Translations under genes and position numbers: made by a program
Part shown: one piece after another, positions 37,131 to 49,532 of the stretch
Layout: every line of letters begins with the position of its first letter
Numbering within the stretch: the stretch's first letter is position 1
The notes under the pieces: generated by a model
What the model saw: the letters and a program-made list of their open reading frames with translations, nothing else
Database searches by the model: none
Told to the model about the DNA's origin: nothing
From: Haliotis cracherodii
Lineage: Eukaryota
Assembly (NCBI RefSeq): GCF_022045235.1
Contig: NW_027266275.1
Location: 25,110,001 to 25,174,000 of the forward strand
Length of the DNA: 64,000 nt
Reading direction: 5' to 3'

Positions 37131-39071
37131 ATGTTCGGATGTACCCGGTTCCTTGGGGTGTTAACCTTCATGTCCGTCGTGACCCCTGGGACATCAGGCG
37201 GACTCGTCAGATGTAACCCTGGAATGTATTATGACACTGCCATTGGACGCTGTGACGTTTGTGATGTCATATGCGACTATGCTGAGATTCAAGGCACTGT
37301 ACATGAGTGTAGTGAAAAGTGTCCTGGTGAGTTACATTTCTCTACACGTGATTAACATCAAGAACCATAATGACTTGTATTGAATAGAAGCGTATGAAGC
37401 CACCTGTCTGTAACAAATATCGACTTCACAAAACACATTATTTAAATTCTTATCACTTTTTTCCCGTAGTTTATACTATATATTTTTTATTACGTTCATA
37501 AAATCATAACATTATCATCTAAAATAAGTGTTAACTTCAAATGTCTATTTTTCAGAATATAAAACTACGACCACTAGCAAGCCTTTCATATCAACAAACC
37601 CCTCAACAAGTAAGTCGAACTATAGTCTTTTATACTGATATATTGTACCTAGTCACTGATTTAATTCTCCCAACCAACAGCAGAACCACATGTAAAGATT
37701 GGACCACTCTCCAGATATCGATTCGTGAATATTCTGGTTTAGAATTACAGGTCATCAGCAACCTGCGAGACAACTTAATGGATTGCGTGTCATCGTATCA
37801 CCGGTTTGTCTGATCCAGATTCGATATAGACAGACCACTGTCATGTAGCTAGAATAGTGCTCAGTTGGCGTGAAAACAACAAATATGATGAGACGTGTCA
37901 TAGTATACCCGTATGTAGGGAGGGGGGGTTCGAATGGTTAGAAGACAGATCTCTTTTCGACACAATTCGCCAGTCTTGGTTTACAATGGTTCAGGGTCAT
38001 GTTCACAATGCGGGGGTGTCATAAGGAACAGCTGACAGAGTAAACATGTTTGTGTTATAGGGTTCAGTGCGCGGCACAGGTTCAGTGACGTATTGGCTCC
38101 TACGCATTAATCGACTACGTTATTTAAGTGTTAGGAGACCTGTTTGGAATGTTATGTTTTTAGGTGTAGAAGCGTATCATTGGGACTTCGCATAAGAGCG
38201 AATAATATTTTCGATTAGTTGGTTGGTTTGTTGTTTAACGCCGCACTCAGCAATATTCCAGCTGTATGTCTGCGGTCTGTAAATAATCGAGTCTGGACCA
38301 GACAATCCACTGATTGACATCATGAGCATCGATCCACGCTTCGGAAACGATGACATGCATCAATCAAGTCAGCGAACCTGACCACCCGATCCCGTTAGTC
38401 GCTTCTTACGACAACCATAGACGCCTGAAGATCTGTTCTACCCCGGATCTTCACGGGTCAGACAGATCTATGACTTCTCTTTAGGTAGAAGTAACCTATT
38501 CCAGAGTAGAGGTCATCCTAATACAGTACCAGTATTCAACTCTACATTCATAGCCCTCCCTCGCATAACAGTGATACAGTGGACTTGGTGGGTCATCACT
38601 GCAATGGGAGTGTCCCTGACAATGAAACGCCGACTCACAATAGCCTGCTATCGGATGTCAAGTTCCACAGCGTTGTAAACTTTTCTAAGTTGTCATACAT
38701 GTCAACAAACATATTTCTTCTGCTCTGTTGAACATTAGATTATCTCATTTTCAGGTTCGCCATCGGGGGACAGGCACGGCGGCTTTACGATGTCAACACA
38801 GGCATCTATAGCTTCATTGGGGGTGATATATGACCAACCAAGACTTATACTCCTCCTTGTGATGGCCTTGTGCACTGTGACTATCCTGATGTCGACAGTG
38901 ATAATCCTTCTGGTTGTATGGAAGCTCAGAGGGGACACATCGCATAGGAAGACAATCTATAATAAAATAAATAGGGCACCATCTCCAATATACGCGAATG
39001 GACAAAAGAAGAGGATAAACGGAGACTACGTTATAAATGGACTATTGGCACGGGACAGTGTGGATGTGTGA
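37131..39071 (+). CDS. G4: TNFR-like receptor, signal peptide + 1 CRD + TM + tyrosine-motif tail (~188 aa); exons 37131-37326, 37556-37609, 38755-39071
   Basis: MFGCTRFLGVLTFMSVVTPGTSG..CNPGMYYDTAIGRCDVCDVICDYAEIQGTVHECSEKCP|gtgagt; 54-nt phase 1-1 stalk exon (EYKTTTTSKPFISTNPST); TM LILLLVMALCTVTILMSTVIILLVVW. An upstream in-frame ATG at 37038 is possible but gives a poorer signal peptide. Confidence 0.85.
38218..38459 (-). mobile_element. SINE-like family A, full length
   Basis: Ends in cttcacgggtc, the reverse complement of the family 5' end. Confidence 0.85.
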
Positions 39072-39387
39072 ATCATTTTGGTGAATGTTTATGTACTTGG
39101 TGAAATTTGAACGCTTCCATTGGCATAAAAATCAACCAAATGATATTATGATCGTGATGATATATTTTTTGCGAAATAGATCATATCTCCGTATATCTAT
39201 TGGTCATGTTAATGCTAAGTGAGTATTTTCGAAGACAATTTATACATTGCTGACAATTTATATGTAAGTAAGTATCGACCCAGATAGAGGACCATTTATG
39301 CTTTAGATTGATTTTTCAATCATTTAGTACATATTGCACAAAGTCATATACTTTATGCAAGGGAGTTTTATCCTTGGTCTTGGTTTT

Positions 39388-39555
39388 AGTGAGTGAGTGA
39401 GTTGGGTTTAACGCCGCTTTTAACAGTATTCCAGTTATATCACGGCGTGTCAGCTTAATGTGGGAGGAAAGCCCGAAGTAATGCAGTTCTCAAAAGTTTA
39501 CCACTTCAACTCTGAAATGGGAATTGCGGCGCCTTAGACGTCTGAGCCACTCGTT
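39388..39555 (-). mobile_element. SINE family C, internally deleted
   Basis: Tail and head segments match 13913-14184. Confidence 0.75.
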
Positions 39556-39886
39556 ACCATGTTTTTACATATTGGGGATGTTACATATATTGTTGTCATG
39601 TGTTTCTTTTATGACGTTAATGTTTGGTGTCACGCTGCTGATATATACATACATGAATTATTGTTATGATTATCTGTGTCTGTGCATTGATCCGAGAGTT
39701 TAGCACGTTGTTTCTATGTTTAAAGTTTATGTTTTTTTATTATTTAACGTTGTATAAAAAATATATTAATATAACAAACATGATTGGTGTTTGACTTTGC
39801 ATATGCCCCAGTGTAGATGACGACATCAATCCAACATCAGATCTCAATATGTCCTGTGTTTATGCCATTGTGTTACCTGTTATATA

Positions 39887-47069: not shown

Positions 47070-47661
47070 CAATCTCATTAAAATCCGATCGAAGTTGTTG
47101 CTGCCGCTAAACAAAGATCTGAGGACATCCCATTACGATTCACGTCAGAACGACCTTTCGCGAACTTTGACCGACCACTGAAACGACTAACAAGAAGTCG
47201 ACATCAGGCAATTAGAAAGCAGCTTTCTCGAGCTTTATGGCACTCGTTTCAACCTAGCGACTTCCATTTCAGACTACGCTTGAAAAATATGTTGACAGAG
47301 TTCTCGCTTAAAATTTTGAAAACTGAACAAACGAATATTCCGGAATGTCTAATATATGGTTGCGATTACATGGCAGTGCTTCCAACGTACTGTGCAACGC
47401 CTCCTCCGTTCAAATGTTTCTCCCATGGGACAATTTTGACGGAATCAGTGGTACGGGCCGTAACTGTCGTTCGGAATACCCCGTGTCAACGTTTATAAGG
47501 TTGCATGATCAGAAATGACATCCCGACTGTCTCTTTAATGATCTGGTAAGCGACGCTTTGATTGGTCGGATGAAAGGTCGTTCTGACGTGACCCGTAATG
47601 GGATGTCCTCAGATCTTTGTTTAGCGATAGCGAGAAGTAAGATCTGATTTTAATGAGATTG
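47070..47661. mobile_element. ~590-bp non-autonomous DNA transposon with ~100-bp TIRs (Mutator-like)
   Basis: caatctcattaaaatc..ctaaacaaagatctgaggacatcccattacg..acgacctttc mirrored at 47560-47661; flanks acttgtgac / acatgagac match at 7 of 9 positions, suggesting a 9-bp TSD. Confidence 0.78.
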
Positions 47662-48288
47662 ACATGAGACAGTCACGATATAGATATATGGTATATAGGG
47701 CAGATACACTCATCATTGCGCAAACACCTGGTATCATGACAAGACGATGGTGATTCATGAACACATGGTCGTAAAAAGTCGGACTCTACAATGGACACTG
47801 CTTTAGCAAAAGTTTCTAATGATCATGGACATGTTGTCGCTTTTATTTATTCTAATCACACTGTTCTGGATAGAAATATGTCGTCGACAGTTGTAATACT
47901 TGAACAAAGCATGTTTCCTGTCTGTGATAGCGTGTAACGTAAACCCGCCTATGATGCTACTTCTAAAAATAGCGCTGGTTCTGACAGGTTGTAACACAAT
48001 ATCCTGCGCAACAACATTTTTATGCCTGAAAAGATTACCCGATCTTGTGAAATGGTCATAGTTCATTGATGTAACACAGAAAATGTATGTACTGGCACTA
48101 ACAGACGTGCTTTGTGTTCATGAAAATTATCAAACCTGGAATACCCAGATTGTTTTTGCAATGCCTTATGTAATAGTGACGATGTGGATTTCCCAGTGTG
48201 CTAATTTTAGATATCAGTCACGTAAATGCAAGTTTTGAAGCAATCAAGTCAAATATACCGAAACCTCTGCTTTTGGTAGTCTTGAAAA

Positions 48289-49532
48289 ATGACGACGTAT
48301 CTACAGTTTACAGTTTTGGCTGTTTTGGGTTCGGCATCAGCTACATCCGCGTTAAGGAGTTCGGTCACATGTGACCCTGGAATGTACTATGACTTTGCGA
48401 TCGGGAGATGCGATCTCTGTGACTCTATATGTGACTACGCAGAAATTCAGGGTACTGTACTCGAATGTTCGACAAAATGTCCAGGTAGGTCATCGTTCTC
48501 AGTATGGTATTGTGTAATCCTGATTGTATTGAGGTAGACATGTAAACATGTTTTGTACTTACATTATACTGATGTATTTTATATCATAGAATCGGTAAAT
48601 ATTTTACAGGTAAAACTTTTACACATGACTGTTTTCAGAATTATATTTTTTGGCATATACTAATAAGGCATAACATGTACCATATACCTCTGTGTTTTAT
48701 CCGGGTGAACAAATGACTTGCCTTTGCATGTGTTTGTGATGCGGATACGCTCACCTTTACGCGAACACCTGGTGTCATCACTATTTGAAAGTGAGTCATG
48801 AGCACAAGATCCTGATATAGACAGAATCGTAATGGACGGTAATAAAACTGCGATTTTTTTCTGATTATTGAAATGGTTGTGGTTCTTATATATTATTTGT
48901 TGTCAACTTTAAGATTTCAGATCCAGTTACAAAGGAGACAAATCAATAGGTATGTACATAGATATTTAATTAATAAAACCGACTCATCACCGTATGGAAA
49001 TAATCAACTCACCGTATACTTTCCTTTCTGGGCATGGTATACATATGATTTTGAAACGTTTCTTGAAAACAAAATTTATATTGGATTTCAAAATTAAAAT
49101 GATTTGGCATTTTAAATAATCTCAATTTGTTCTTACATAGTGTATAAAAATAATCTTTTTGAACAGGTGTGGCTTAAATTCAAGTAGATTCATGGAGATT
49201 CATTTTTTATATTTGTTGTTACAGATACAGTCACAACGACCACAGAGACAGCTTCACGATCGTGTGGGGAGGAAAGAAGGACAATCACGATGTTGTTAAT
49301 AGCTTTGTGTGGTGTGTCGTTTTTGTTGATACTGATGATGGTTGTTATTATTGTTCTAACGTTCAGGCGCGCAGGACTTAACCAGAATAGTTACAGTGTT
49401 AGCAGAACAACGGAACCCTTGCTACGTAGAGATGGACATGCGCAGTGTGTAGCAGCAAATGGACAGATACTAACACAGACGGTAACTGCAGAACCAAAAT
49501 CAGTTGCCTCCGAACGAGATCCAGTTCCATAA
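48289..49532 (+). CDS. G6: TNFR-like receptor, signal peptide + 1 CRD + TM (~179 aa); exons 48289-48484, 48914-48949 (micro-exon, less certain), 49225-49532
   Basis: MTTYLQFTVLAVLGSASATS..CDPGMYYDFAIGRCDLCDSICDYAEIQGTVLECSTKCP|gtaggt; 36-nt phase 1-1 exon (DFRSSYKGDKSI); ttacag|DTVTTTTETAS..MLLIALCGVSFLLILMMVVIIVLTF. CRD is 32/38 identical to G4. Confidence 0.85.

Follow-up and report, generated by a model that had tools for sequence, protein, structure and literature searches.

Tumor necrosis factor (TNF) receptors with only one cysteine-rich domain (CRD) are described in vertebrates, where BCMA, TACI and BAFF-R have ligands in common and different tails, and where these three and Fn14 signal through TRAF proteins and have CRDs far more divergent than those considered here. 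The present analysis concerns two genes, G4 and G6, in a 64,000-nucleotide stretch of the Haliotis cracherodii genome (contig NW_027266275.1, hereafter C12, positions 25110001-25174000; "the window"), which likely encode TNF receptors of the Grindelwald/TACI type and which combine nearly identical CRDs with dissimilar tails. Our preferred reading, to which we assign a probability of about 0.5, is that they are sister genes of an old duplication, likely binding the same or a closely related TNF ligand, probably with different affinity, and feeding two outputs outside the classic activating/inhibitory scheme; an earlier note on this DNA had read the two as paired immune receptors.

As is predicted for the two abalone proteins, Drosophila Grindelwald (PDB 6zsy, 6zt0) is a type I protein without death domain whose one CRD combines a beta-hairpin with a C2 helix-loop-helix; its CRD has eight cysteines and no hairpin motif of the D-x-L type (PMC8024323), whereas G4 and G6 have six cysteines. 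In BCMA, TACI and Fn14, the D-x-L hairpin-tip region provides major contacts to the ligand (PMC8024323). Grindelwald is a single fly gene whose product binds Traf2 and Veli (bioRxiv 10.1101/2024.07.27.603686), while G4 and G6 lack a canonical TRAF motif and stand among dozens of paralogs. Grnd has been treated as arthropod-specific (10.1101/2021.12.26.474206); a survey of 148 invertebrate proteomes describes how grnd-like receptors and Eiger-like ligands have multiplied in particular lineages, reports grnd homologs in oyster and scallop, and gives maxima of 12 grnd paralogs in an annelid and 27 TNF paralogs in a mollusc (bioRxiv 10.1101/2024.07.27.603686).

Two kinds of receptor pair offer further comparisons. 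KLRC/NKG2, Ly49 and PIR share with G4/G6 linked genes with similar binding domains and dissimilar signaling parts, but they show homogenization of the binding domain after speciation, an immunoreceptor tyrosine-based inhibition motif (ITIM) on one partner and features such as the transmembrane Arg of KLRI2 (PMC3210942), none of which was found in G4/G6. CD28 and CTLA-4 are, like G4/G6, neighboring and unhomogenized, with binding domains more alike among orthologs than among paralogs; their ligand is conserved, and their difference in affinity has possibly been kept by purifying selection (PMC3210942). They differ in having an Ig fold, only ~30% identity between paralogs and a demonstrated opposing function (PMC3210942), against 84% CRD identity and a predicted function for G4/G6.

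Gene structure

G4 and G6 are spliced three-exon genes, 11 kb apart, predicted to encode membrane proteins with one CRD, of 188 and 179 amino acids, respectively. Their exons, in window coordinates, are:

37131-37326, + strand: G4 exon 1, encoding signal peptide and CRD (the latter at 37212-37325)
37556-37609, + strand: G4 exon 2, Ser/Thr-rich stalk, incoming joint in 4/4 contig sets
38755-39071, + strand: G4 exon 3, stalk, ALC-containing transmembrane segment, 49-residue tail
48289-48484, + strand: G6 exon 1, encoding signal peptide and CRD (the latter at 48370-48483)
48914-48949, + strand: G6 exon 2, 12-codon stalk exon, both joints in 4/4 contig sets
49225-49532, + strand: G6 exon 3, stalk, uncharged transmembrane segment (with ALC), 55-residue tail

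The joint between G4 exons 1 and 2 and both G6 joints were found in all four contig sets, which derive from four studies, and the joint between G4 exons 2 and 3 is listed in one of them; the runs behind these sets were guessed to be RNA, none being recorded as such. The G6 model agrees with the annotated protein P0154, and the G4 protein is identical to P0001 (labeled an uncharacterized protein of H. cracherodii) from residue 32 of the latter onward. The database model of G4 begins 31 codons upstream (37038); because the upstream extension in Haliotis asinina is not alignable, 37131 is likely the G4 start. According to a hydropathy scan and the gene models, both proteins have a signal peptide, a stalk, a single transmembrane segment and a short tail without death domain, and the stalk part of G6 exon 3 carries a conserved Cys (SCxEERR). 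High-copy dispersed repeats, with many copies across the cluster, occupy 38215-38460 in G4 intron 2 and 39388-39470 in the G4 3' region.

Conservation of the CRDs

The CRDs of G4 and G6 are identical at 32 of 38 residues (84%), the highest value among the 435 pairs formed by 30 ungapped CRDs (median 15/38). Elsewhere the two proteins barely align, as the earlier note had described for signal peptides, stalks and tails: signal peptide (5/27), stalk (9/31) and tail (11/49) do not outscore 1000 shuffled versions (p 0.20-0.90). A weak alignment exists between the transmembrane segments (8/26, p 0.013-0.038), and no DNA similarity between the genes was found beyond the CRD, the sole match being 123 bp at 72%. 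Within the CRD, 20.5 of 22.5 synonymous sites differ (proportion of synonymous differences, pS, 0.91, saturated) against a non-synonymous proportion (pN) of 0.14, and nucleotide identity (81/114) is lower than amino-acid identity.

Both genes are present in H. cracherodii, Haliotis rufescens and H. asinina; Haliotis rubra likewise has G6. The searches returned no close ortholog of either from outside Haliotis, and relatives occur in other gastropods and in bivalves. Judged by protein identity, CRDs match at 35-38 of 38 residues across orthologs, against 32/38 between paralogs: to their H. asinina counterparts G4 scores 35/38 and G6 37/38, the G6 CRD is 37-38/38 identical across four species, and the H. 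asinina paralogs again differ at six positions (32/38). G4 and G6 group in the CRD tree with 99/87 support, and all seven G4/G6 proteins have ICDYAEIQGTV unchanged in the helix-loop-helix. Silent sites are saturated and orthologs are closer than paralogs; the alignments therefore support an old duplication with each CRD held by strong purifying selection. Of the two processes that the earlier note had offered for the upkeep of the CRD, selection thus remains, and gene conversion is excluded by the same figures. The greater closeness of orthologs is also the reverse of the homogenization pattern of opposing pairs (PMC3210942).

Other array pairs with lower pS (0.32-0.69) show protein divergence equal to or greater than that of G4/G6. 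For other array genes, likely orthologs at similar flank divergence (55-76%), whose species was looked up for a few, match mostly at 72-92% in the CRD; G4 and G6 are located at the conserved end of the array. Three CRD differences, N2D, T9F and V16L, are fixed in all seven orthologs, and two of them fall within the predicted ligand-binding hairpin. In the structural model position 9 is the predicted hairpin tip, aligning to the x of the TACI/BCMA D-x-L motif, and V16L lies on strand 2; with a fixed change at the hairpin tip, the two receptors cannot be taken to have exactly the same ligand specificity.

At C12:25238636-25239014 lies a broken copy of G4 exon 1, which carries short deletions. 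It is probably a recent duplicate, since it has the His of TVHEC in common with G4 of H. cracherodii and H. rufescens and not with that of H. asinina.

Tails and transmembrane segments

Although alignment indicates no mutual relationship between the two tails, each is separately conserved, G4 at 35/49 and G6 at 37/55 (67%) residues to H. asinina, in agreement with the idea of different tails on paralogs with near-identical CRDs. Among 27 genes, each of the two transmembrane segments has the other as its best match (46 vs 38 and 31), which makes it less likely that the pair arose by exon shuffling; ALC within them is invariant in 7/7 proteins, and neither segment contains Lys, Arg, Asp or Glu. 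Sites of interest in the tails are:

38952-38969, + strand: TIYNKI, ITSM-like (ITSM, immunoreceptor tyrosine-based switch motif); Tyr to His in H. asinina
38988-39005, + strand: IY(A/L)NGQ, YxN site in 3/3 G4 orthologs, candidate SH2 site
39024-39041, + strand: DYV(I/L)NG, second Tyr site in 3/3 G4 orthologs
49437-49448, + strand: HAQC, in 4/4 G6 orthologs; resembles the family pattern P/H-x-Q/E-E/C, without the Pro of canonical TRAF sites
49530-49550, + strand: earlier stop (TAA) of G6, then the relic LPMSSI

The G4 motifs listed in the earlier note (TIYNKI, IYAN, DYVI and the terminal SVDV) are all present. All three orthologs share INRxPSPIYxNGQKKRIxGDYVxNGLL, which includes two Tyr, and end in DV. 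H. rufescens retains TIYNKI, whereas H. asinina has TIHKRI, leaving the ITSM in two of three species, so the assignment as an ITSM failed the comparison with orthologs that had been named for it. SVDV likewise exists at the G4 terminus as a PDZ-like end, but its class II character is not kept, VDV being ADV (FADV) in H. asinina. Of 20,000 shuffled G4 tails, 1.8% contained an ITSM, 18% either an ITSM or an ITIM, and 28% a YxN site; at these chance rates, such motifs are weak evidence unless conserved. No second match to the G4 tail was found anywhere in the genome.

The G6 tail, 55-62 residues long across orthologs, has the single Tyr previously noted (49392-49394) and the invariant blocks YSV, RTTEPL, RRDGHAQC and KSVASER. 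In the three other species G6 ends in S-S-I, class I by the standard PDZ class definitions, so that this end exists in three of four species; in the window G6 stops seven codons early, and the stop position of the other species is now Arg (49530-49553). A tail so conserved does not fit the suggestion that G6 is a decoy without signaling function.

For comparison a family set of 83 tails was compiled from 137 representatives, dropping eight vertebrate TACI-like rows and rows without transmembrane segment and tail. Class I PDZ ends occur in 10 of the 83 (2.0 expected), [PH]x[QE][EC], a pattern defined post hoc, in 27 (8.3 expected) and Px(Q/E)E in 18 (4.7 expected). The canonical TRAF consensus comprises Px(Q/E)E, Px(Q/E)xxD, PxQxT and PxExxZ (PMC6125299); the major, PxQxxD and TRAF6 patterns and, by eye, PxQxT are absent from all seven G4/G6 tails, as is an ITIM. 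The best local match between the two tails is an ANGQ block, a possible functional link: NGQ is invariant in 7/7 proteins, but the tails align no better than chance and NG[QE] shows no enrichment across the family (4/83 tails, 2.5 expected). The G6 tail also resembles that of the gene at C12:25180025 (HAQC ... FPVA; p 0.02-0.04, uncorrected over eight comparisons, with G4 scoring alike), a kinship that is a lead only.

Fold and family assignment

Six cysteines are invariant in all 35 aligned CRDs, with a helix-loop-helix of the form Cys-x3-Cys...Cys-x3-Cys. A model of the G4 CRD built from 35 family rows predicts a hairpin (strands at 5-8 and 13-16) and a helix-loop-helix, with three helices and a predicted local distance difference test score (pLDDT) of 94. 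Its best fold match is Grindelwald (TM-score 0.76, probability 0.94, E 0.37; Z 4.3), followed by BCMA and TACI; Foldseek returned no match at E <= 0.001. When the family profile was compared with solved structures, the 12 best matches were TACI (E 0.002) and BCMA, and the Atlas neighbors of G4 are mollusc clusters, Grindelwald and TACI. In Cys spacing and in a Y/F-D-x-x-x hairpin the array family resembles BCMA/TACI, the profile's YyD aligning with FYDHLL of TACI and YFDSLL of BCMA, while the Leu of D-x-L is Ala in both G4 and G6. As these fold, profile and Atlas matches, each weak alone, combine, G4 and G6 are likely Grindelwald/TACI-type TNF receptors.

TACI-CRD2 Pfam matches for the two proteins reach 9-11 bits against a cut-off of 22.9, and the proteins looked up are annotated as uncharacterized only. 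Because such proteins miss the Pfam cut-offs, molluscan TNF receptor counts obtained from these profiles may be far too low.

Interpretation

In the preferred reading, a conserved trimeric TNF ligand, or two close relatives, would cluster the receptors and hold both CRDs nearly fixed, while the fixed Thr/Phe (hairpin tip) and Val/Leu (strand 2) differences may adjust affinity or ligand range. In G4 the two conserved Tyr sites would carry the signal (YxN, possibly by way of a Grb2-type SH2 adaptor), and G6 would be placed or scaffolded by a C-terminal PDZ motif and perhaps use HAQC as an atypical TRAF site; what the sequences show is anatomy and evolutionary pattern, from which we infer ligand, adaptors and outputs. 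By analogy, the pair is best read as resembling BCMA/TACI/BAFF-R or CD28/CTLA-4, not KIR/Ly49. If true, G4 and G6 would offer a two-gene test of one TNF-type binding domain wired to different outputs in an invertebrate, and possibly a tyrosine-based TNF receptor tail.

Several observations weigh against this reading. Thr/Phe at position 9 is a radical change at the x of a D-x-L-like hairpin tip. YxN turns up in 28% of shuffled G4 tails, and family tails contain YxN, ITIM and ITSM 3, 7 and 3 times against 6.5, 5.4 and 1.0 expected, with no significant enrichment (n=83). G6 of the window lacks the PDZ end, which may be dispensable. The fold matches rest on a domain of 38 residues, with E-values and Z-scores that are weak alone, and no Pfam match for G4 or G6 exceeds its cut-off. 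Finally, with ~50 candidate TNF domains in the genome, separate cognate ligands are equally possible.

An account built on this last point would have G4 and G6 as slow-evolving paralogs, each tied to a conserved TNF ligand of its own, their CRD likeness reflecting descent and constraint and their tails having drifted before being conserved independently. The three fixed CRD differences, two of them in the hairpin, and the many candidate ligands (64 TNF-domain matches) speak for it. So do the genes at C12:25248670 and 25262084, whose CRDs are also similar (27-28/38) and whose tails are weakly related (z 2.4), and the lack of correlation between CRD and tail similarity when 351 pairs of genes are compared (Spearman 0.07, p 0.2). 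A similar CRD with a dissimilar tail is therefore not unique to G4/G6, which are the extreme case; in other sister pairs the tails are still alignable (z 15-18). Yet G4/G6 have the highest CRD identity in the array despite saturated silent sites, pairs with lower pS having diverged as far or further, and ICDYAEIQGTV has stayed invariant in both genes; on balance we regard separate ligands, as a full account, as possible rather than probable.

A classical opposing pair along the lines of the earlier note, in which one ligand is read by a G4 with an ITSM switch or inhibitory function and by an activating or decoy G6, with homogenized CRDs, appears improbable. Closely similar binding domains do occur in linked genes with unrelated tails, the ITSM pattern is rare in shuffles, and CD28/CTLA-4 shows that homogenization is not required (PMC3210942). 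However, the ITSM Tyr is lost in H. asinina, no tail has an ITIM, no partner combines a charged transmembrane residue with a short tail in the manner of an activating receptor, the CRDs are not homogenized, and the G6 tail is conserved rather than decayed. The surprising claim, KIR-like paired receptors in a mollusc, is not supported. Another arrangement, also quite unlikely in our view, would make G4 and G6 subunits of one complex or mutual modulators, co-clustered on a TNF trimer or linked by membrane cysteines, their ratio setting the output. The invariant transmembrane ALC and the conserved unpaired stalk Cys of G6 are compatible with this, as are the three receptor sites of a TNF trimer (PMC8024323), but a transmembrane Cys is common across the array.

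The receptor array and TNF-domain genes

A search over 394 kb with a profile from the window CRDs (matches above 19 bits, a few of them partial) found 41 Grindelwald/TACI-like CRD exons on both strands of C12:25048832-25360564 (~310 kb), nearly all followed by a phase-1 donor. The array holds at least 26 genes, this being the number to which a full Haliotis protein was mapped, and several carry two CRDs. The genome contains 64 matches to the Pfam TNF domain, and in 51 of them 100 or more of the 127 positions are covered with no stop. Two matches, on a small contig, appear to be duplicate haplotypes, and an intron interrupts the best TNF domain. Against the surveyed maxima of 12 and 27 paralogs (bioRxiv 10.1101/2024.07.27.603686), the abalone has a single array of 41 CRD exons, or at least 26 genes, and 51 TNF matches that are near-complete. 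A literature search, with subscription journals and the survey supplements (species list) outside its scope, found no paper on this array.

This expansion of receptors and ligands around G4/G6 is the larger result and merits its own study, and for abalones that are farmed or endangered the array may be a candidate immune locus. It is conceivable, although we consider it doubtful, that the abalone TNF code is larger than the vertebrate one (~50 ligands against at least 26 receptors), with G4/G6 as a hub pair reading one ligand, G4 through tyrosine/SH2 signaling without TRAF and G6 as a PDZ-anchored counterpart shifting or dampening the response.

TNF matches lie in several tandem clusters (C67:34.2-51.8 Mb, C7:33.86-34.07 Mb, C31 and C48), with a recent, near-identical expansion on C7. 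More CRDs were seen outside the array at C12:27.31-27.34 Mb and 81.08 Mb. Within the window, the CRDs at 5424 and 13032 belong to genes annotated with two CRDs; upstream of them lie two shorter and divergent CRD exons with signal peptides (4098-4196 and 10688-10786). Among the loci at C12:25180025, 25240708, 25248670 and 25262084, the 25262084 gene has its nearest CRD at 25248670 and its nearest tail at 25180025 (z 12); by alignment it is a possible mosaic, which suggests reshuffling of CRDs and tails in the array.

Neighboring genes

Between G4 and G6 lies the paralog G5, whose CRD exon is spliced to 44711-44962 and then to another exon from 45822.

42875-42992, + strand: G5 CRD exon, 17/38 identical to G4

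Two acceptor variants were seen for the tail exon from 45822 (window 42875-45900). G5 and G3 (44711-44962 and 33952-34257, respectively) share the tail sequence RLKxQDCC..HAQE/HTQE (z 11), and their CRDs are identical at 18/38 residues, the mirror image of G4/G6. The database models of both start at a Met just before the CRD, without signal peptide; an upstream exon may be missing, or, as with BCMA, these may be type III proteins. A unit of ~240 bp is present in three tandem copies, with GA microsatellites between them, just upstream of the CRD exon of G5 (window 42140-42745).

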